A stretch of DNA of 37,776 nucleotides from an uncultured Bdellovibrionales bacterium (GTDB lineage: Bacteria > Patescibacteriota > Minisyncoccia > Moranbacterales > UBA2206), in assembly GCA_964567695.1 (NCBI GenBank), contig CAZMNQ010000003.1, forward strand, positions 1 to 37,776, in the 5' to 3' direction. The notes beneath the pieces are model-generated. The model had not been told where the DNA came from, did no database searches, and was given only the letters and a program-made list of their open reading frames with translations. A program made the translations under genes and the position numbers. Shown in pieces: positions 1,500-37,494 of the stretch. Position 1 is the first letter of the stretch, and the number at the start of each line of letters is the position of its first letter.

Positions 1500-4124
1500 A
1501 TGCGAGAAATTTCCAAACAATTTGATTTCAAAGAGAGGGAAGGGAAAATTTACGCGCTTTGGGAGAAGAGTGGGTTTTTTAATCCGGATAATATAAAATC
1601 TTCTAACCTGCCTGCCGGTAGGCAAGGAAAATATTGCAATGTTTTGCCGCCACCGAATGCCAATGGCGAATTGCATATCGGCCACGCCAGCGGTTATGCG
1701 GTGATGGATATTTTCGGCCGTTTCGAACGGATGGGTGGCAAAAAAGTTTTGCTTTTGCCAGGCAAAGATCATGCCGGCATCCAGACGCAAGTTGTTTTTG
1801 AGCGAAAAATAAAAGAAGAGCAAGGGATAATTCGCCAAGAAATGGGCCGGGGAAAATTTTACGCGGCTTGTTATGATTTTTGCATGGATCGCTCGAACTA
1901 TATGCGCTCGCAGGAAAAGAAAATCGGTATCAGCGCGGATTGGTCGCGGGAAAAATTTACACTGGATCCGGACGGATTGAAAATCGCGCTGGAGACTTTT
2001 GTAAAAATGTATAAAGATGGTTTGGTATATAAGGGTAATCGGATTATCAATTGGTGTTCGCGTTGCGCGACAGCTTTGAGTGATGTTGAGGTGGAGCACA
2101 AAGAAAGAGAGGGAAAATTATATTATATCAAATATCCAATCAAAGATTCCAAGGAATTCATTGTGGTGGCGACAACTCGTCCGGAAACAATGTTGGGAGA
2201 CTCTGCTGTGGCAGTTAATCCAAAAGACAAGAGATTCTTGGGTTTTATCGGCCAGAACTTGATTTTGCCATTGCAAAACAGGGAAATTCCCGTGATTGCC
2301 GATCGGCGAATTGATATGAAATTTGGAACCGGTGCGGTGAAGATTACGCCGGCGCATGATCCATTGGACTGGCAAATTGGCAAGGATCATAAATTGGAAG
2401 AAATTTTTGTCATTGATGAAAAAGCTAAAATTACGGAAGCCGGCGGTGAATATGTCGGTCTGGATGTTTTGGAGGCCAGAGAAAAAATTGTAGCCGATTT
2501 GCAAGGGCTGGGATTTTTGGAAAAAGAAGAATCTTTGACTAATGCTGTTTCTGTTTGTGAAAGATGTAAGACTATAATTGAGCCGTTGATTTCAAACCAA
2601 TGGTTTGTGTCGGTGGACTCGGAAAAATATTCCTTTAAGAAAAAAACTTTAGAGATGATCAAGTCCGGCAAGGTTGAGATTTATCCGGAAAATTTCAAAA
2701 AAATTCTCATCCATTGGTTAAATAATTTGCAGGATTGGTGTATTTCACGACAAATATGGTGGGGACCGCAGTTTCCAGTGTGGTATCGTGGCGAAGAGAT
2801 TTATGTCGGACTGGAAAAACCCAAAGGCAAGGATTCCGACTCCGCCAAGGCTACGACGGGCAAGTGGATTCAGGACGAAAATACTTTGGACACTTGGTTT
2901 TCTTCAAGTCAGTGGCCATATACAGCACTGGGTTATCCCAACGGAAAAGACTGTAAAAACTTTTATCCAACCGACGCTATGATTACGGGTCGTGATTTGT
3001 TGTTCTTTTGGGCAGCAAGAATGTTGATGATGGGTGGTTATCGTACCGGGAAAGTTCCTTTCAAAAATCTATATTTTACTGGCTTAATTTTGGACAAGGA
3101 TGGGCATAAATTTTCCAAGTCGCGAGGCAATGGCATTGACCCGCTAGAAATCATTGAAAAATATGGCGCGGATGCACTGCGTTTGAGCTTAGTGATGGAT
3201 ATTGCGCCGGGACAAGACGCGCGGCTCTATGAGGAAAAAATTGAAAGCTTCCGCAATTTTGTGACCAAGCTGTGGAATATTTTCCGCTATTGCAAGCAAT
3301 CGGATGAAAATTTTGCTTTGGTGGAAAAAATAAGCAAAAAAGATTTGAAAACTTTGTCAGACAGATGGATTGTTTCTGAATTGGAAGAGGTGACAAAAAA
3401 AGTTACACAATGCATGAAAGACAAGCAGATTTCTTTGGCGCAGGACGCATTGCGCAAATTTACTTGGGATAGTTTCGCTGATTGGTTCGTTGAAATAAAT
3501 AAACTGGAAAAGAATACTAAGGTTTTGGGCTATGTTCTGGACAAAATTTTGAAACTTTGGCATCCGTTCACGCCTTTTGTGACAGAGGAAATTTATCAAA
3601 TTTTGAATAAGAGTGAAGATATTTTGATGATGGCTAAATGGCCGAAAAGTGAAAAGAAATTTATTGATGCCAAGGCGCAGGCTAATTTTGCCGATCTGCA
3701 AGAATTGATTGCAAAAATTCGAAATATTCGGGCGAGTTATCACATTAATCCAGCGGAGTTGATAGAGGCGTATGGCAAGCTTAAGACCGAAAAAGAAATC
3801 GTGGAAAAACTCGGTCGAGTTAAAATTGAAACTAAGATTGCCAAAGAGAAAATGACCCAAATTTCTACTCGCAAGAGATCATTGCAACTGAATATCTCCA
3901 AATCGATAGATGTGGAAAAAGAAATTATTGCTTCAGCCAAAGAAATTCAAAATTTGACACAACTTGTGGCCAAAAACGAAGGTATGTTGAAAAACAAACA
4001 GTTTGTGGCTGGAGCGCCCAAGGAAATTATTGAGGCAACAAAGACAAGATTAGAAGAATATAAGGAAAAATTGGAGGTGCAAGCAGCGCTTAAGAATAGC
4101 CTAGAACAGCTTAAAAGAACTTAA
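1500..4124 (+). CDS. valS: Valyl-tRNA synthetase
   Basis: 874 aa. HIGH motif PPPNANGELHIGHA, KMSKS-type KFSKSRGN, DTWFSSSQWP and a C-terminal coiled coil. Carries a 21-nt palindromic insert near the N-terminus (1607-1627). Confidence 0.95.
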   Translation: MREISKQFDFKEREGKIYALWEKSGFFNPDNIKSSNLPAGRQGKYCNVLPPPNANGELHIGHASGYAVMDIFGRFERMGGKKVLLLPGKDHAGIQTQVVFERKIKEEQGIIRQEMGRGKFYAACYDFCMDRSNYMRSQEKKIGISADWSREKFTLDPDGLKIALETFVKMYKDGLVYKGNRIINWCSRCATALSDVEVEHKEREGKLYYIKYPIKDSKEFIVVATTRPETMLGDSAVAVNPKDKRFLGFIGQNLILPLQNREIPVIADRRIDMKFGTGAVKITPAHDPLDWQIGKDHKLEEIFVIDEKAKITEAGGEYVGLDVLEAREKIVADLQGLGFLEKEESLTNAVSVCERCKTIIEPLISNQWFVSVDSEKYSFKKKTLEMIKSGKVEIYPENFKKILIHWLNNLQDWCISRQIWWGPQFPVWYRGEEIYVGLEKPKGKDSDSAKATTGKWIQDENTLDTWFSSSQWPYTALGYPNGKDCKNFYPTDAMITGRDLLFFWAARMLMMGGYRTGKVPFKNLYFTGLILDKDGHKFSKSRGNGIDPLEIIEKYGADALRLSLVMDIAPGQDARLYEEKIESFRNFVTKLWNIFRYCKQSDENFALVEKISKKDLKTLSDRWIVSELEEVTKKVTQCMKDKQISLAQDALRKFTWDSFADWFVEINKLEKNTKVLGYVLDKILKLWHPFTPFVTEEIYQILNKSEDILMMAKWPKSEKKFIDAKAQANFADLQELIAKIRNIRASYHINPAELIEAYGKLKTEKEIVEKLGRVKIETKIAKEKMTQISTRKRSLQLNISKSIDVEKEIIASAKEIQNLTQLVAKNEGMLKNKQFVAGAPKEIIEATKTRLEEYKEKLEVQAALKNSLEQLKRT
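1607..1627. repeat. Family P1 palindromic core, degenerate copy, in frame inside valS
   Basis: CCTGCCTGCCGGTAGGCAAGG differs at 2 positions from the P1 consensus CCTGCCTGCCGGCAGGCAGG. It encodes LPAGRQG in the variable segment just before the HIGH motif. Confidence 0.7.
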
Positions 4125-4195: not shown

Positions 4196-5476
4196 ATGTC
4201 TAAGATAAAAAAGATTTTTGCCAGGGAGATTTTGGATTCACGGGGTAATCCGACAGTGGAAGTGGAAGTTGAATTGGAGTCGGGAATTAAAGCTGTGGCA
4301 GCGGTGCCGTCAGGCGCTTCGACTGGAATTTTTGAGGCTTTGGAATTGCGAGATGGCGATAAGAAAAGATTTAGTGGGTTGGGAGTTTTGCAAGCCGTGG
4401 AGAATGTGAATGAAAAAATCCAAAAAGTTGTGGTTGGTATGGAAGTGGAAGGTCAAATTGAAATTGATCAAAAAATGCTGGAATTGGATGGAACGGAAAA
4501 TAAAACTAATTTGGGAGCCAACGCAATTTTAGGTGTCTCACTGGCTGTTTGCCGCGCCGCGTCTGTTGAGGCTGGCATACCGTTGTATAAATATATTTCT
4601 AAGGCCTACAAACTACCTGCCTGCCGGACAGGCAGGAAAACCACGGGCTTTAAAATGCCCATTCCCATGTTTAATATCATCAATGGCGGCAAGCACAGTG
4701 ATTCAGGACTTTCAATTCAGGAATATAAGTTGGTACCCAATGGCATTAAATCGTTCAAGGAGCAATTCCGTGCTGGCAGTGAAATTTTTCATAAATTAAA
4801 AGATATCTTGGCTTCTGAGGGACAAAGCGTGGCTGTGGGTGATGAAGGTGGTTTTGCGCCTCGCCTGGAAAGCAACTCCAAACCCTTGGAACTGATTAAT
4901 CGTGCTATAGAAGAAGCCGGTTATAAAAAAGGAAAGGAAGTCAGTACGGCGATAGATGCGGCGGCTTCATCTTTTTTTGACGAAAAAGAAGGACAATATA
5001 TTTTCAAACCGGAAAGCAACGGCATCACTCGTGAAATGTTGGTGAATATTTATAGCGAATGGATAAATAAATATAATGTAATGTCAGTTGAGGACGGTTT
5101 GAATGAGCAAGATTGGGAAGGCTGGCGCGCGATGGAAGAAAAAATTGGAAAGACGGTGATGACAATTGGCGATGATCTCTTGGTGACCAATGTAAAAAGA
5201 TTGGAAATAGCGATCAAAGAAAAAGCGTGCAATTCTGTTTTGATCAAGGTTAATCAGATCGGCACCCTAACAGAAACGATGGCGTGCATAAAATTGGCCA
5301 AGAAAAATAAGATGCGAATCGTCATTTCGCATCGTTCAGGCGAAACCACTGATGACTTCATAGCCGACCTAGCCGTGGGCGTGCAAGCCGACTACATAAA
5401 ATCCGGCTCCCTTTCCCGAGGCGAGCGAATTTGTAAATATAATCGCTTGTTGAGGATTGAGGAAGAAATAAAATAG
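4196..5476 (+). CDS. eno: Enolase (phosphopyruvate hydratase)
   Basis: MSKIKKIFAREILDSRGNPTVEVEV..., SGASTG, NIINGGKH, IKVNQIGTLTET and SHRSGETTD are textbook enolase motifs. Carries a 21-nt palindromic insert (4616-4636). Confidence 0.95.
   Translation: MSKIKKIFAREILDSRGNPTVEVEVELESGIKAVAAVPSGASTGIFEALELRDGDKKRFSGLGVLQAVENVNEKIQKVVVGMEVEGQIEIDQKMLELDGTENKTNLGANAILGVSLAVCRAASVEAGIPLYKYISKAYKLPACRTGRKTTGFKMPIPMFNIINGGKHSDSGLSIQEYKLVPNGIKSFKEQFRAGSEIFHKLKDILASEGQSVAVGDEGGFAPRLESNSKPLELINRAIEEAGYKKGKEVSTAIDAAASSFFDEKEGQYIFKPESNGITREMLVNIYSEWINKYNVMSVEDGLNEQDWEGWRAMEEKIGKTVMTIGDDLLVTNVKRLEIAIKEKACNSVLIKVNQIGTLTETMACIKLAKKNKMRIVISHRSGETTDDFIADLAVGVQADYIKSGSLSRGERICKYNRLLRIEEEIK
4616..4636. repeat. 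Family P1 palindromic core in frame inside eno
   Basis: CCTGCCTG-CCGGA-CAGGCAGG. It encodes PACRTGR, within the LPACRTGRK segment, in the loop preceding PIPMFNIINGGKH. Confidence 0.75.
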
Positions 5477-26494: not shown

Positions 26495-27208
26495 GTGAAA
26501 TTTGATATAATTACAATTTTTCCTGAGATATTTGACTCCTATTTTTCCGAGTCGATTATTAAGCGCGCGCAAGGCGCTGGTTTTGTAGATATAAATATTA
26601 TTAATTTGCGTGACTACACGACAGATAGTCATAAGACTGTTGACGACACGCCCTATGGCGGAGGAGCGGGTATGGTTATGAAAGTTGAACCGATATATCG
26701 AGCTGTTGGCTCGATAATTTCCAATTTCCTCCGCCGCGGCGGACCAATTTCCAATGAATTTTCAAATTCAAATTCCAAAATTTCTAAACCAGATAATGTA
26801 TGTATTATTTTATTTTCAGCTAAGGGGAAGCGCTATACACAGCAAGACGCAGTTAGATTATCTAAATATGAAAATATTATAATGATTTGCGGTCGCTATG
26901 AAGGCGTGGATGAAAGAGTGATTGAACACATCGCGGATGAAGAAATTTCCATCGGAGATTTTGTTTTAACGGGTGGTGAAATTCCGGCGATGGTGGTTGT
27001 GGATAGCATCACGCGTCTCATTCCGGGTGTTCTTGGCAATAGTGAATCAATTGTGGCAGAGTCCCACAGTGAAGAACAATATTTGGAATATCCGCAATAC
27101 ACAAAACCGGAGTATTTTTCAGGTTGGAAAGTCCCTGAAGTGCTTTTGAGCGGCAATCATAAAAAAATTTCCGTTTGGCGCGAAGATAGTTCTAAATCAG
27201 TGAAATAA
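26495..27208 (+). CDS. trmD: tRNA (guanine37-N1)-methyltransferase
   Basis: GTG start. [53 protein letters not shown]. Carries an in-frame repeat element at 26715-26784. Confidence 0.9.
26715..26784 (+). repeat. Family P2 element (core TCCGCCGCGGCGGA at 26730-26743) in frame inside trmD
   Basis: AATTTCCAATTTCC-TCCGCCGCGGCGGA-CCAATTTCCAATGAATTTTCAAATTCAAATTCCAAAATTTC. The 9-mer CCAATTTCC directly flanks the core on both sides. Encodes [23 protein letters not shown]. Confidence 0.8.
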
Positions 27209-28392: not shown

Positions 28393-28469
28393 CTTGAAAA
28401 TTTAGTAATTGAAGATTGATTGTAAATTCCTGCCTGCCGGCAGGCAGGGAAAATTGTAAATTGAAAATT
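28393..28469 (+). repeat. Family P1 full-length element (core 28429-28448), intergenic between ftsW and murG
   Basis: CTTGAAAATTTAGTAATTGAAGATTGATTGTAAATT-CCTGCCTGCCGGCAGGCAGG-GAAAATTGTAAATTGAAAATT. Perfect 20-nt palindrome. The arms are homologous to the copy inside miaB. Confidence 0.8.
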
Positions 28470-29652: not shown

Positions 29653-31086
29653 TTGAAAAATATGGATTTATCAAAAATTAAAAATGTCTATGTGATTGGC
29701 ATTAAGGGCTCGGGTATTGTGGGTATTGTGGAAATTCTCACAAAAATGGGCATATTTGTGAGCGGATCGGATGTACCGGAGAAGTTTTTTACTGATGAAA
29801 TTTTGCAAAAATTAGATATAAAATATTTTGAGGAATTCTCAGAAAAAAATATTCCGGAAAATGTTGATTTAATTTTATATTCAACCGCCTATAACGCGGA
29901 GAATAATATTGAATTTAATGCGGCTAAAGAAAGAGATGTGTTGATGATGAGTTATCCGGAAATTTTAGGGGAACTTTTTAATCAAAAATATGGCATTGCG
30001 GTTTGTGGAACACATGGCAAAACTACAACTTCTGCCATGATGGCCTTTGTTTTGCAGGCAGTGGGCGTTTCTCCGACCGCGGTCATTGGTAGCCGCGTCA
30101 AACAGTGGGGTGGCAATGCTCTAGTTGGCACAGGAGAATATTTTGTTATTGAAGCGGATGAATATCAAAATAAATTAAGACTATATGAGCCAAAAGGAGT
30201 AATTCTTACAAGTGTGGATTGGGACCATCCAGACACATATCCAACTCTTAATGAATATAAAAAAGCTTTTACAGATTTTGTGGCTAAAATTCCCAAAACT
30301 GGTTTTCTAGTCGTTTGGGGAGATAGTATTGATACAAATGAAATTGCTAAGTATTGTACTGCTAAAGTAATTAAATATGGATTTGGAGAGGATAATGATG
30401 TTGTAATTTCAAATTTCAAATTTCATCCGCCGCGGCGGACAAATCAAAATCAAATGTCAAATGATCAAAATGATGAATTAAAATATCAGAGTTTTGATGT
30501 TATGTATAAAAAAGAGAATCTGGGTAGTTTTCAAATTAAACTTATTGGAAAACATAATGTTTTGAATGCTGGAGCGGTAATTGCAGTGTGTCACAAGTTG
30601 AATTTGGATATGGAAAAGGTGCGTGAAGCATTGAAGGATTTTTCCGGAACTTCAAGGCGCTTTGAAATGATTGGGCAGAGGAATGGCGCTATTTTAATTG
30701 ATGATTATGGCCATCATCCGGAAGAAATCAAAGCTACGCTGAAAGCGACTAGAGAAATTTATCCGGACAAAAATATTATTGCAGTCTTTCATCCGCATTC
30801 CTATTCACGAACCGAAGCCTTGTTACAAGATTTTGCGCAAAGTTTTGATGACGCGGACCGTGTGATTGTGCTGGACATCTATGGTAGCGCCCGGGAAAAC
30901 ACAGGCAATGTTTCTTCTGAGGATCTAGTAAAATTGATTAACAAATATAATCGCGGCAAAGCTGAATATATTGCAACCATTGATGGAGCCGTAGAATCCT
31001 TGCAAGATAAAATCAGCGACACGGATATTGTTCTGGCGATTGGCGCCGGCAATGTTTTTGAGGTGGTGAAAAAATTAAAATTTTAA
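29653..31086 (+). CDS. murC: UDP-N-acetylmuramate--L-alanine ligase
   Basis: GIKGSGI..., VSGSD, VCGTHGKTTTSAM, EADEYQ, GKHNVLNA, IDDYGHHPEEI. The ORF track starts at TTG 29653; ATG at 29662 is an equally plausible start. In-frame repeat element at 30404-30470. Confidence 0.9.
   Translation: MKNMDLSKIKNVYVIGIKGSGIVGIVEILTKMGIFVSGSDVPEKFFTDEILQKLDIKYFEEFSEKNIPENVDLILYSTAYNAENNIEFNAAKERDVLMMSYPEILGELFNQKYGIAVCGTHGKTTTSAMMAFVLQAVGVSPTAVIGSRVKQWGGNALVGTGEYFVIEADEYQNKLRLYEPKGVILTSVDWDHPDTYPTLNEYKKAFTDFVAKIPKTGFLVVWGDSIDTNEIAKYCTAKVIKYGFGEDNDVVISNFKFHPPRRTNQNQMSNDQNDELKYQSFDVMYKKENLGSFQIKLIGKHNVLNAGAVIAVCHKLNLDMEKVREALKDFSGTSRRFEMIGQRNGAILIDDYGHHPEEIKATLKATREIYPDKNIIAVFHPHSYSRTEALLQDFAQSFDDADRVIVLDIYGSARENTGNVSSEDLVKLINKYNRGKAEYIATIDGAVESLQDKISDTDIVLAIGAGNVFEVVKKLKF
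30404..30470 (+). repeat. Family P2 element (core 30426-30439) in frame inside murC
   Basis: TAATTTCAAATTTCAAATTTCA-TCCGCCGCGGCGGA-CAAATCAAAATCAAATGTCAAATGATCAAAA. Encodes SNFKFHPPRRTNQNQMSNDQ, a different reading frame from the trmD and miaA copies. Confidence 0.8.
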
Positions 31087-31090
31087 ATTT

Positions 31091-32023
31091 ATGTTAAATA
31101 TTCAAAAAAATATAAATATAGCTCCCTACACAACTTTCAAAATCGGCGGACCAGCGAAATATTTTGCAGAGGTTAATTCGGAGGAAGATATTTTTGAGGC
31201 GCTGAGATATGCCAAGGATAATGGCCTGCAATTTTTTATATTGGGTGGCGGTAGCAATATTTTGGTGAATGACAAAGGCTTTGACGGGTTGATTATAAAA
31301 ATGAAATTAGATGATCTCAAGATGGATGTGTCTCGGGGCATAATCGAAATCGGGGCAGGGGTGATTCTGGCGAAAATAGTGAAAAATTCCACTGCCGAGG
31401 GATTGACGGGCCTAGAATGGGCTTCCGGCATCCCTGGGACGGTTGGCGGAGCATTGAGGGGCAATGCGAGAGCTTTTGGACGCAATATCGGTATGTCAGT
31501 CGAAACTATTGAGGCACTAGATATTACGACCCTAGAAAGAACCACTTATAATAATTCCGAGTGTGAATTTGCCTATTGGGGTAGTATGTTTAAAAAAAAT
31601 CCCAACCTGATTATTTTGTCCGCTAAGATTAAGCTGGAAAAAGGTGACGCGGAAAAAAGTCAACAAGAGGCCAGGAATATTATAGTCAAAAGAATGGCTA
31701 TACATCCGACAGGCAGCAGCGCAGGTTCATTTTTTCTAAATCCAGTGGTGTTTGATGAAAAATTGCGGGAGAGATTTGAAAAGGATTCCGGAACAGCCTG
31801 TCGAGACAACAAAATTCCTGCTGGCTGGCTAATAGACGAAGTTGGACTGCGCGGTAAAAAAATAGGCGGAATTCAAGTGAGCGAAAAACATGCGAACTTT
31901 GTAATAAATATTGGGGGCGGAACAGCCGAGGAGGTTGTGATGCTGACAAGCTTTGTTAAACAGCAAGTGCGTGATAAACTAGGGATTGAGTTGCAAGAAG
32001 AAATTCAATTTGTAGGGTTCTGA
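31091..32023 (+). CDS. murB: UDP-N-acetylenolpyruvoylglucosamine reductase
   Basis: YTTFKIGGPAKYF, ILGGGSNILV, GIPGTVGGA, GSFFLNP, AGWLID..GLRG...G...VS.KHANF. Confidence 0.9.
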   Translation: MLNIQKNINIAPYTTFKIGGPAKYFAEVNSEEDIFEALRYAKDNGLQFFILGGGSNILVNDKGFDGLIIKMKLDDLKMDVSRGIIEIGAGVILAKIVKNSTAEGLTGLEWASGIPGTVGGALRGNARAFGRNIGMSVETIEALDITTLERTTYNNSECEFAYWGSMFKKNPNLIILSAKIKLEKGDAEKSQQEARNIIVKRMAIHPTGSSAGSFFLNPVVFDEKLRERFEKDSGTACRDNKIPAGWLIDEVGLRGKKIGGIQVSEKHANFVINIGGGTAEEVVMLTSFVKQQVRDKLGIELQEEIQFVGF

Positions 32024-32182
32024 GAGCCTGTTCATAATCTCCGTATTCTGCTGCGAAATTGAAATTCCGGCTGCAAATTGTTCAAAATTCGTCGAAATAT
32101 CCAGATATTCCTCCTCATTTTTCACAATTTTCGCTCGAAATTTCAATCTCTCGCGACGAAAGAGAGATTATGAGCAGGCTCT
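32023..32182 (+). repeat. 160-nt MITE-like or structured-RNA element with 19-nt terminal inverted repeats
   Basis: AGAGCCTGTTCATAATCTC (32023-32041) and GAGATTATGAGCAGGCTCT (32164-32182) pair at 18 of 19 Watson-Crick positions, plus one T-G (plus-strand G-U). It starts at the last base of the murB TGA stop. Internal sub-hairpins are present. Confidence 0.65.
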
Positions 32183-35949: not shown

Positions 35950-36042
35950 ATATTTTTTTATACGCGTATTCGTTAGATGCTCAAATTTTTAATTTTTAAT
36001 TTTCAATTTTTAAACAAATCTCAATGATTAAATTTTTAAATA

Positions 36043-37494
36043 TTAAACGATTTCTCCTTCCAAATTCCAAATGCTAACTTTAGTAATTTTAACTTTTATA
36101 ATCTTGCCAATCAGAGATCCCTCGACAAGTTCGGGATGACAATCGTTACTGATTGTCATTTTGACATTTTTTCCGGTGCGGGTTTTGCCGAAATAAATAT
36201 GGTGCTTTCCTAGAGCTAAGCTCTTGGAATCCAAGAGCTTAGCTCTAGGAGAACTTTCCTTTTCGATCAGGATTTCGACAGTCGTGTTGAGGAATTTTTT
36301 GCTATTTTTCAGCGCGGTCTTTTTCAGGATTTCATTTAAAAATTGTTCGCGACGGGCTTTTTCGGTTTTGGAAACTGAGTCTTTCATATTCCAAGCCGGT
36401 GTGCCGGGGCGGGGGGAAAATTGGCCAAAGAAAACCATGTCGTAACCGACTTTTTCCATGATTTCCGCAGAGTCTAAAAATTGTTTTTTGGTTTCACTTG
36501 GGAAGCCGACAATGATATCGGAAGTGATGACGGCTGGCACGCCCGATTTATTTTTTTTGAAAGCGGCTTGAATTTTTTTAACTAAAATCAAATATTCTTG
36601 CGCGGTGTATTTGCGATTCATTTTTCTGAGGACTTCATCATTGCCAGCTTGGATGGGCAGATGAAAAGCTTCGCAAACTTTTTTGCATTTCGTTACTGTT
36701 TCAATCATTTCTGGCGACACATCTTTCGGGTGATTGCTGACAAAGCGAATCCAAAATTTTCCCGGGATGGCGTTGACTTTTTTTACGAGCTTAGAAAAAT
36801 TTATTTTGCCATCCGAGTATGAATTAACATTTTGTCCAAGCAAAGTTATTTCTTTGTAGCCTTTTTTCACTAGATTTTTTACTTCATAAATTATTTCTTC
36901 CGCCGGTCTGGAAACTTCCCGTCCACGAGCATAGGGCACGACGCAGTAGGCGCAGAAATTGTTGCAGCCGGTCATAATCGGCACAAAAGCTTGATATGCA
37001 TTTGTAAGTTTTGGTTTAATGGATAGATAAGAGATATTTTCTTTGCTTAGTTCGATATTTTTTTGTGCCGAAATTTTCAATTTACAATTTACAACCTTGC
37101 CTGCCGGCAGGCAGGTTTTCAATGAATTTTCAATGATAAAATTTTCAAACAGCTCAAAATTGTTAATAGGGGAAAATAAATCAACTTTATTTTTTAGTCT
37201 TCTTTGCACATCTTTGCGGTTGGCGAGACAACCAGTTAAAACAATCTTGATTTTTGGATTAGCCTTTTTGAGATTATGAACTTGTCCATAGACCCGATCT
37301 TCGGCCATTTGGCGCACCCCACAGGTGTTGAAAATGACCAAACCTGCCTTCGCTAAGGCTTCGGCAGGCAAGTCAGCATTTTCGTTCCTAGTAAGTGGTT
37401 CTAGTCCTTGTGATTCCAGAAAACTGGCAATCCGCTCACTGTCTGAATGGTTCATCTGGCAACCAAAAGTTTTGATAGAGTATGTTTTATTCAT
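36043..37494 (-). CDS. miaB: tRNA-i6A37 methylthiotransferase (radical SAM MTTase)
   Basis: TFGCQMNHSDSE and FNTCGVR (N-terminal cluster), GCNNFCAYCVVPYARGRE (radical SAM CxxxCxxC), C-terminal TRAM domain. Contains at least three palindromic in-frame inserts. Confidence 0.9.
   Translation of the reverse strand: MNKTYSIKTFGCQMNHSDSERIASFLESQGLEPLTRNENADLPAEALAKAGLVIFNTCGVRQMAEDRVYGQVHNLKKANPKIKIVLTGCLANRKDVQRRLKNKVDLFSPINNFELFENFIIENSLKTCLPAGKVVNCKLKISAQKNIELSKENISYLSIKPKLTNAYQAFVPIMTGCNNFCAYCVVPYARGREVSRPAEEIIYEVKNLVKKGYKEITLLGQNVNSYSDGKINFSKLVKKVNAIPGKFWIRFVSNHPKDVSPEMIETVTKCKKVCEAFHLPIQAGNDEVLRKMNRKYTAQEYLILVKKIQAAFKKNKSGVPAVITSDIIVGFPSETKKQFLDSAEIMEKVGYDMVFFGQFSPRPGTPAWNMKDSVSKTEKARREQFLNEILKKTALKNSKKFLNTTVEILIEKESSPRAKLLDSKSLALGKHHIYFGKTRTGKNVKMTISNDCHPELVEGSLIGKIIKVKITKVSIWNLEGEIV
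36116..36159 (-). repeat. Hairpin-containing in-frame insert in the miaB TRAM domain
   Basis: ATGACAATC-GTTACT-GATTGTCAT hairpin at 36136-36159, next to CCCTCGACAAGTTCGGG. Encodes TISNDCHPELVEGS between conserved V.M and LIGKIIKVKI. Confidence 0.55.
36208..36250. repeat. Near-perfect 41-43-nt palindrome in frame inside miaB
   Basis: CCTAGAGCTAAGCTCTTGGA-A-TCCAAGAGCTTAGCTCTAGG: 20 of 20 pairs around a single central base, and each arm is itself palindromic (AGAGCTAAGCTCT). Encodes SPRAKLLDSKSLALG. Confidence 0.75.
37072..37149 (-). repeat. Family P1 full-length element (core 37095-37115), 78 nt, in frame inside miaB
   Basis: Minus strand reads TTTGAAAATTTTATCATTGAAAATTCATTGAAAA-CCTGCCTGCCGGCAAGG-TTGTAAATTGTAAATTGAAAATT. 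It shares ATTGTAAATTGAAAATT and the left arm with the intergenic copy at 28393-28469. Encodes FENFIIENSLKTCLPAGKVVNCKLKI. Confidence 0.8.

Follow-up and report, generated by a model that had tools for sequence, protein, structure and literature searches.

The last complete open reading frame (ORF) in a stretch of 37,776 nt from an uncultured, tiny, groundwater-type bacterium of the Moranbacterales (assembly GCA_964567695.1, contig CAZMNQ010000003.1; hereafter the window, with a G + C content of 39%) is the tRNA-modification gene miaB. Here we describe a segment of this gene in which an AT-rich repeat and a GC-rich palindrome, the P1 core, are present in frame, and report the distribution of both repeats in related miaB genes, in the remainder of the window, and in public genome, metagenome and viral collections. 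The coordinates of the features are listed in Table 1. The protein encoded by miaB contains a UPF0004 domain (residues 5–98), a Radical_SAM domain (residues 171–344) and a weakly matching TRAM domain (Pfam). Its closest solved relative in a PDB search is the MiaB of Bacteroides uniformis (7MJV; E = 1e-64), and a Foldseek search with its AlphaFold model returned MiaB structures (7mjz/7mjv) as the top solved-structure matches.

The original prediction, made from the sequence of the window, had placed a complete intergenic-type element of 78 nt (positions 37072–37149) inside miaB, between the methylthiotransferase N-domain and the radical-SAM core and upstream of the CxxxCxxC motif. Minus-strand translation of these positions yields FENFIIENSLKTCLPAGKVVNCKLKI, a stop-free run of 26 codons that corresponds to MiaB residues 116–141 and precedes the radical-SAM motif CNNFCAYC, and both the open frame and the location between the two domains are thereby confirmed. 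The proposed boundary does not hold. The repeat comprises 63 nt (21 codons), consisting of a 42-nt AT-rich sequence (ATTGAAAATTCATTGAAAATTGTAAATTGTAAATTGAAAATT; 14 codons, IENSLKIVNCKLKI) that is made of TTGWAAA-like heptamers and is split by the 21-nt core, and the leftmost 15 nt lie outside it. The two parts together account for 21 added residues (IENSLK-TCLPAGK-VVNCKLKI), and the conceptual translation across the insert junctions includes ENSLKTCLPAGKVVNCK.

Table 1. Features of the window and of the loci compared with it (L numbers denote loci; positions of window features are those of the whole stretch).
Feature	Position or locus	Strand	Basis
miaB ORF, 483 aa, host of the insert	36043..37494	-	ORF list, Pfam, PDB, Foldseek
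Outermost 15 nt of the segment, TTTGAAAATTTTATC, encoding FENFI; outside the 42-mer, within predicted helix 113–124	37135..37149	-	variable locus flanks, AF2, 7MJV alignment
Left half of the 42-mer, 19 nt, ATTGAAAATTCATTGAAAA, encoding IENSLK	37116..37134	-	metagenome loci, L001, L003
P1 core, 21-nt GC-rich palindrome, coding strand CCTGCCTGCCGGCAGGCAAGG, 7 codons, (K)TCLPAGK(V)	37095..37115	-	empty orthologs, repeat scan
Right half of the 42-mer, 23 nt, TTGTAAATTGTAAATTGAAAATT, encoding VNCKLKI	37072..37094	-	metagenome loci, orthologs
Intergenic composite upstream of murG: diverged AT-rich repeat and perfect 20-nt palindrome (28429–28448)	28408..28469	+	repeat scans, arm alignment
P1 core, 21 nt, CCTGCCTGCCGGTAGGCAAGG, in frame in valS, NLPAGRQG just before the HIGH motif	1607..1627	+	repeat scan, ValRS Pfam domains
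P1 core variant, 21 nt, CCTGCCTGCCGGACAGGCAGG, extra A in the loop, in frame in the enolase gene, PACRTGR	4616..4636	+	1-nt indel copy
Second-family copy, in frame in trmD	26716..26780
Second-family copy, in frame in the Mur ligase gene	30411..30461
Second-family copy, in frame in miaA	35703..35768
mnmA-like ORFs with the exact 42-mer in frame	L186, L187, L190, L192, L193, L195
GT2-like ORF with the exact 42-mer in frame	L196
GIY-YIG loci, core-ascertained	L068 2100–2480; L177 490–870; L111 1400–1790; L039 3540–3900
GIY-YIG loci chosen independently of the core	L213, L216, L217, L218, L219

The core in miaB is a variant, lengthened by one A, of a 20-mer palindrome (CCTGCCTGCCGGCAGGCAGG) that is free of stop codons in all three reading frames. 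In the predicted fold of the 78-nt segment (minimum free energy −16.8 kcal/mol, z = −2.05) the core forms an RNA hairpin; pairing is limited to these 21 nt, and the arms on either side are direct heptamer-like repeats. With up to 3 mismatches allowed, the 20-mer has three matches in the window, against an expectation of 0.00 from 100 shuffles. Both arms in miaB have counterparts at the same relative positions beside the intergenic core upstream of murG (27/34 and 20/23 nt matching), each value being equal to the maximum over 200 Markov-shuffled windows. What stands of the original claim is thus that an intergenic-type element lies in frame in miaB, its arms and core both matching the intergenic copy; that it forms one complete unit of 78 nt does not stand.

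The proteins most similar to the window MiaB are the MiaBs of Moranbacteria, Parcubacteria and other Patescibacteria, and 39 patescibacterial orthologs were aligned as protein sequences and six ortholog loci were compared as DNA. The residues encoded by the arms are common to most of the 39 orthologs (consensus FENFxIxNxLKIxNxKLKIS), and about 7 residues, TCLPAGK(V), are peculiar to the window protein. Two of the loci (L001 and L003) are empty sites that read ...CATTGAAAA^TTGTAAATTGTAAATTGAAAATTTCG, where the window has exactly 21 additional nucleotides at the caret. The flanks of this site in L001 are identical to those in the window (48/48 nt), and the miaB genes of both loci carry the 42-mer uninterrupted at the corresponding site, L001 without a mismatch and L003 with three. 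Because the palindrome is absent from these genes, close orthologs show a gap of 7 residues and not the 26-residue gap that had been expected of MiaB orthologs in general; the Bacteroides uniformis protein is about 15 residues shorter here than the window MiaB, in a region of such low similarity that the gapped HMMER alignment to 7MJV is arbitrary. A homologous segment in orthologs, which had been named as evidence that would speak against an insertion, exists for the arms within the clade and is not found across phyla.

An independent insertion event is seen in a further ortholog (L002), where a T variant of the 21-mer lies 8 nt downstream of the site in the window and is read in a different frame (NLPAGRQGW). 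A different 30-nt double hairpin occurs in two copies in the same tract of L005, and a similar insert, QPKAGPPLEE, is found at that place in protein P0024, which is encoded on L004. The filled allele of the window is identical in four independent assemblies (L007–L010), so the miaB insert is no assembly artefact. The arm region is better conserved between the window and L001 than any other stretch of miaB (identity 0.96 versus 0.69 overall, and 0.51 at third codon positions), which fits either a repeat family that is kept uniform or recent gene conversion. Reverse-transcriptase genes (RVT_1) lie near miaB in two of the relatives (L004, 9630–11013; L005, 1–788 and 2821–7626); a bAvd gene adjoins that of L004, as in diversity-generating retroelements, and one of the two relatives has a DnaE intein with a LAGLIDADG domain.

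In the AlphaFold (AF2) model of the window MiaB, which has a mean predicted local distance difference test score (pLDDT) of 76.6, residues 113–124 form a helix and residues 126–164 score below 50. The core and the right half of the 42-mer occupy this low-confidence linker between the domains, and in the model they are probably disordered and exposed, in agreement with the exposed linker for which a check by structure prediction had been proposed. The left end of the 42-mer encodes the end of the last N-domain helix of the model, which matches by position LTLPELIASVEAG of 7MJV, a native helix-forming segment of the solved protein.

Other insert-like segments are present elsewhere in miaB. A hairpin of 45 nt at 36207–36251 (20-bp stem, 15 codons) encodes the SSPRAKLLDSKSLALGK region, a low-confidence loop (residues 419–428) that only some MiaB orthologs have. 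Two more patchy segments with imperfect hairpins, at 36131–36164 and about 37340–37390, encode NDCHPELVEGS and LTRNENADLPAEALAKAG, and similar peptides occur in few orthologs; the LTRNENADLPAEALAKAG segment has the outer stem CCTGCC...GGCAGG in common with the P1 core.

The dispersal of the 42-mer was assessed by scanning metagenome contigs for both of its halves (exact 37-nt query) with a gap of 0–30 nt allowed between them. The scan recovered 16 loci, none of them in miaB, and the gap was 0 nt in all; the 42-mer is exact in 13 of the loci and has one mismatch, located in the left half, in the other 3. Six copies lie in mnmA-like ORFs (context ...IENSLKIVNCKLKIAKD.NKDQSYFLW...), one in a glycosyltransferase (GT2)-like ORF, one in another ORF, and the remainder between genes, and the flanking sequences differ from locus to locus. 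A purely native linker as the origin of the arms was dropped on the basis of these copies in other genes and spacers. In the mnmA-like and GT2-like ORFs, which belong to related bacteria, the 42-mer is again read as IENSLKIVNCKLKI, and in those of the mnmA-like type it is preceded by more AT-rich, repeat-like codons (SNFKFLNKSKIKK...). The window itself contains only three (TTGWAAA)3-like tracts, two of which abut a P1 core. The spacer between miaA and miaB (35984–36013) contains a core-less AT-rich tract related to the 42-mer, with matches of 27/34 nt to the left arm (at 36007) and 19/23 nt to the right.

Seven GC palindromes are present in the 38-kb window, six of them within ORFs (valS, eno, miaB, trmD, a Mur ligase gene and miaA), and four are copies of the P1 core (four in 37.8 kb). 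The three P1 cores in ORFs all measure 21 nt, a length reached by two different one-base additions, and the intergenic copy measures 20 nt. The regions around the inserts contain about 8 extra residues relative to ValRS 1GAX and about 12 relative to solved enolases; the cores of both proteins fall at alignment gaps and likely lie in loops. The remaining in-ORF palindromes of Table 1 belong to a second repeat family with the core TCCGCCGCGGCGGA and AAATTTC-type heptamer arms, whose block of about 27 residues in MiaA is absent as a whole from the two closest orthologs. In the spacer after murB (32023–32182), two arms of 79 nt, 71% complementary and separated by 2 nt, make up a large imperfect inverted repeat.

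In a collection with one genome per species, the 20-mer was found in at least 120 genome stretches, and the phyla among the matches listed are Patescibacteria, Saccharibacteria, WWE3, Bacteroidota (including cultured isolates), Omnitrophota, Planctomycetota, Proteobacteria, Nitrospirota, Chloroflexota and others. In a viral collection, which was scanned separately, it was found in 53 stretches, compared to 0 and 0 for two composition-matched control palindromes, and the copies across public collections number in the hundreds. Chance or artefact as the source of the cross-phylum matches was rejected on account of these two controls and the presence of the core in cultured isolates. About one-fifth of the core copies lie in a long open frame, where they are read as LPAGRQ, CLPAGR or PACRQAG. 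At loci with a G + C content below 0.5, open frames of at least 150 aa contain 7 of 9 copies of the 21-mer variant versus 17 of 102 copies of the perfect 20-mer (Fisher p = 2.7e-4), and this enrichment, a filter for lengths divisible by three, argues that the copies in ORFs are translated and not removed.

The core ends in CCTG and CAGG, and the only bias in its flanks is a purine at position −1 and T or G at position +1. Tandem repeats of 7–8 nt are about 12-fold more frequent beside the core than at control positions, and a 7-nt direct repeat of the flanks accompanies 5.6% of core copies versus 0.35% of controls, only where arrays flank the core. The possibility that the heptamer arrays are accumulated 7-bp target duplications was rejected as a general rule in view of this low frequency and of comparisons within loci that show no duplication. 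In four loci (L033, L040, L077, L083) the 20-mer is located at the centre of another copy, and in five (L030, L094, L117, L159, L160) it is immediately preceded by a different hairpin (CCCTCTCC..GGAGAGGG) and followed by a GGTGAGG-like sequence. These arrangements suggest that GC hairpins form a network in which one inserts into another.

To find recurrent neighbours of the core, the ORFs up to 2 kb away from about 170 copies were clustered. Neither a recurrent transposase (including Y1 and the RAYT type discussed below) nor a parent insertion sequence (IS) was found among them, and the only recurrent enzyme gene is an ORF of about 80 aa with a stand-alone GIY-YIG domain (Pfam E ~1e-14). Its profile has seven matches in the core-ascertained loci, none of them more than about 150 nt from a core. 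The layout of these loci consists of a 30–45-nt tRNA 5' fragment with the 20-mer in the D loop, followed by the GIY-YIG ORF and an intact gene of the same tRNA. The family comprises at least 7082 proteins at E ≤ 1e-10, with members from the core-bearing phyla Bacteroidota, Patescibacteria, WWE3, Omnitrophota and Nitrospirota. Reciprocally, a core was found within about 250 nt in five of five GIY-YIG loci that were picked regardless of its presence, one of them from the cultured flavobacterium Salinimicrobium sediminis (L218) and another from a Chitinophagaceae strain (L213), and in each case it is situated inside a partial tRNA copy (D loop, anticodon stem-loop junction or T arm). Distant phage relatives of the nuclease (32–37% identity), which are weak as a reciprocal test, have no core upstream.

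Six comparisons of filled and intact tRNA sequences from the same locus revealed exact 20-nt insertions without target duplication. A role of the core as a tRNA intron was rejected, since at L068 the interrupted copy is a truncated duplicate, with an intact tRNA-Lys gene downstream of it (ARAGORN), and similar duplicates occur elsewhere. In a viral contig (L165, about 2240–2330), ARAGORN calls a tRNA-Met (CAT) of 92 nt with the 20-mer in the variable loop, resembling a long variable arm, and calls it again, at 72 nt, after deletion of the 20-mer; at L133, where the flank is similar, ARAGORN calls no tRNA with or without the 20-mer.

We conclude that the miaB element is a pair of nested insertions, probably of different age, and not one 78-nt unit. 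The reading that we prefer, with a probability of roughly 0.7, is that the segment is selfish or neutral repeat DNA that was inserted in two steps and is read through by the ribosome. In the older step, the 42-nt AT-rich repeat would have come to occupy the interdomain linker of MiaB in the ancestor of several Moranbacteria-like lineages. In the second, lineage-specific step, the 20-nt GC palindrome would have landed at the centre of the 42-mer and would have been kept as a 21-nt variant with one extra A, an ORF presumably tolerating no length that is not a multiple of three. Since the 21 residues cover the end of a predicted helix and a linker that is disordered in the model, MiaB most likely still works, and such an insert needs no assumed function. 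As to how the palindrome may move, our leading guess is that the 20-mer is a non-autonomous hairpin that inserts precisely, without target duplication, into unpaired or loop-prone DNA and is mobilised or co-propagated in trans by the widespread stand-alone GIY-YIG nucleases of about 80 aa at tRNA genes.

Several points weigh against this reading. In its left part, the 42-mer extends into a predicted helix, so its site is not purely a linker. The nesting of cores in AT-rich tracts could reflect tolerance of insertions and not a preference for a target, and the identity of the 42-mer between species may be the result of gene conversion and not of shared ancestry. The core of the intergenic composite is displaced by 2 nt from its position in miaB, an offset that is compatible with transfer of the entire composite followed by drift. 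No member of this GIY-YIG family is found among the ORFs of the window or of about 190 kb of related loci, and the window contains no tRNA gene. As the nuclease loci come from other organisms, the link between nuclease and palindrome is correlative, a lead on how the 20-mer spreads and not a property of the miaB copy.

A wider proposal, tentative and in our estimation more apt to be wrong than right, is that the 20-mer constitutes the non-autonomous half of an undescribed mobile system, the autonomous half of which would be the GIY-YIG cassette of about 80 aa homing into tRNA genes. The range of such a system would take in Bacteroidota, Patescibacteria, Omnitrophota, Nitrospirota and viral contigs. 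Either the nuclease itself or the ensuing repair would place the hairpin exactly, with no duplication, at loop-prone sites (the D, anticodon and T loops of tRNAs, other hairpins and heptamer tracts), and copies in ORFs such as that of miaB would survive only as 21-nt variants.

Among the other explanations of the miaB segment, transfer of a single 78-nt element, arms plus core, from an intergenic site to miaB would leave other MiaBs without all 26 residues. The same order of arms and core in the miaB and intergenic copies agrees with such a transfer, and the second-family arms and core of miaA, missing as a whole from the two closest orthologs, demonstrate that composites can appear en bloc; it is nevertheless improbable, given that L001 and L003 have the arms without the core at the same place, that most of the 39 orthologs encode the arm residues, that the offset of the core differs among miaB, the intergenic copy and L002, and that the outer 15 nt are not part of the dispersed repeat. 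We also consider it unlikely that the insert was kept because it is useful, be it that its two extra cysteines (C128/C137) or a longer linker tune the two Fe-S domains of MiaB, or that the mRNA hairpin pauses translation between domains or terminates antisense transcripts. Unrelated proteins contain the same core, read in each of the three frames (LPAGRQG, CLPAGK, PACRTGR), most of its copies are in non-coding DNA, there are orthologs without the insert, the region is predicted to be disordered, and the z-score of the fold is merely about −2, even though that fold (−16.8 kcal/mol) includes the core hairpin, the hairpin, followed by TTTT on the antisense strand, was flagged as terminator-like, the allele is fixed in four assemblies, and the DNA of the arms is conserved to an unusual degree.

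Removal of the segment after transcription or translation, as a mini-intron or in the manner of an intein, so that mature MiaB would lack it, is very unlikely. The core does reside at loop positions inside tRNA-gene sequences, and ARAGORN still recognises the viral tRNA-Met in which it forms what looks like a long variable arm, but most interrupted tRNA copies are truncated duplicates beside an intact gene. A spliced element would also be free of the constraint that biases cores to 21 nt in ORFs and to 20 nt in non-coding DNA, 7–21 residues are far below the size of an intein, Pfam detects only the MiaB domains, and no Rfam family reached its gathering score anywhere in the window. Hardly credible, finally, is the assumption that there was no insertion and that the segment is an ordinary lineage-specific linker resembling spacer DNA only through its AT-richness and low complexity. 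The arm matches of 27/34 and 20/23 nt merely equal the extremes of the shuffled controls, and the genome has a G + C content of 39%, but the indel relative to the orthologs is exactly 21 nt, the 42-mer recurs at 16 loci other than miaB, the expectation for the core in the window is 0, and both control palindromes are absent from the viral collection.

To our knowledge, in-frame palindromic repeats in essential genes are textbook matter only for Rickettsia. The window presents the same phenomenon in a bacterium of the candidate phyla radiation and on a far smaller scale (21 nt nested in 42 nt). The GC cores in ORFs help to explain the patchy short insertions that hamper protein alignment and annotation in these organisms, and they represent a natural experiment on the sites at which proteins tolerate insertions. 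Neither a full-text search of the literature for the core sequence or the LPAGRQ peptide nor one for GIY-YIG nucleases in connection with tRNA and a palindrome returned a relevant paper; with no description found in the searchable literature, the occurrence of the 20-mer across phyla and its association with GIY-YIG genes and tRNAs may be new. If the 20-mer is indeed half of a mobile system, it would be the smallest known mobile insertion unit of bacteria and a general source of 7-residue insertions in proteins.

Rickettsia palindromic elements (RPEs) have a length of about 100–150 bp, are palindromic for the greater part of it, and have been described only in Rickettsia and its relatives; they occur in frame in many unrelated housekeeping genes, including those of tRNA-related enzymes, where they are translated at permissive sites, and also in non-coding DNA (PMC10969869). 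The miaB insert resembles them in being in frame in an apparently functional ORF, in having a length divisible by three and no stop codon, and, to judge from its reading frame, in being translated. Unlike RPEs, it measures 63 nt, its palindrome of 20–21 nt is nested in a non-palindromic 42-nt repeat, its host belongs to the Patescibacteria, and the 20-mer is shared, letter for letter, by many phyla and by viral contigs.

Repetitive extragenic palindromes (REPs) are high-copy palindromes of 20–40 bp that are mostly extragenic, carry a GTAG/CGTC tag and are associated with REP-associated tyrosine transposases (RAYTs); some are located inside ORFs, including tRNA synthetase and tRNA-modification genes, target-site duplications are not expected, and the families are species-specific (PMC3733652). 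The P1 core is likewise a short palindrome in many copies, and its behaviour in ORFs recalls the minority of REPs that lie within genes. In contrast to REPs, it lacks a terminal GTAG/CGTC tag (GTAG is found only internally, in the T variant), the 20-mer is identical across phyla, and the sole recurrent enzyme gene among the roughly 170 loci is that of the small GIY-YIG protein; membership in the REP/RAYT system was set aside for want of a terminal tag and of a recurrent transposase within 2 kb of these cores. Miniature inverted-repeat transposable elements, with about 70–300 bp and IS-derived terminal inverted repeats of 15–30 bp, differ from P1 with its 20–21 nt and no target duplication, although the core can be read as two abutting inverted ends of 10 nt, for which no parent IS was seen.

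Arrays of the heptamer TAACTGA have been reported from Beggiatoaceae, Cyanobacteria and Bacteroidetes, where they are patchily distributed, mostly in spacers and sometimes in ORFs (PMC4679880). The 42-mer shares with them its composition of 7-nt units (here TTGWAAA-like), and short-period arrays also flank the core; the unit itself is a different one, and the 42-mer is a fixed irregular block with exact copies inside coding regions. Phage T4 SegB is a free-standing GIY-YIG homing endonuclease at a tRNA gene cluster, and Seg proteins have extra DNA-binding domains, with no fixed palindrome reported (PMC2330249). As in the case of SegB, the small GIY-YIG gene lies beside tRNA genes with duplicated tRNA segments, which suggests a homing type of spread. 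Unlike Seg proteins, the ORF of about 80 aa encodes essentially the catalytic domain alone, and the 20-mer is always inside the neighbouring tRNA fragment in the loci examined; the miaB copy further differs from a free-standing GIY-YIG homing cassette in having no adjacent GIY-YIG ORF, which is present in the loci of other organisms.

The GC clusters of yeast mitochondria, such as GC42, are GC-rich hairpins of 30–50 bp with a putative AG target duplication (PMC4478555), and other hairpin elements are known from mitochondria (PMC2800124); they vary between relatives, can merge, nest or shuffle with one another, and may be helped by intron-encoded endonucleases, as has been proposed (PMC4478555; PMC2800124). 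P1 differs from them in being bacterial and viral, in its length of 20 nt without duplication, and in the kind of endonuclease suggested, a free-standing GIY-YIG protein at tRNA genes. As GC hairpins in AT-rich DNA that nest and merge, the GC clusters are nevertheless the closest analogue of P1 in size class, nesting and unexplained movement, and the link between the 20-mer and the GIY-YIG genes makes the movement of REP-like and GC-cluster-like hairpins testable.

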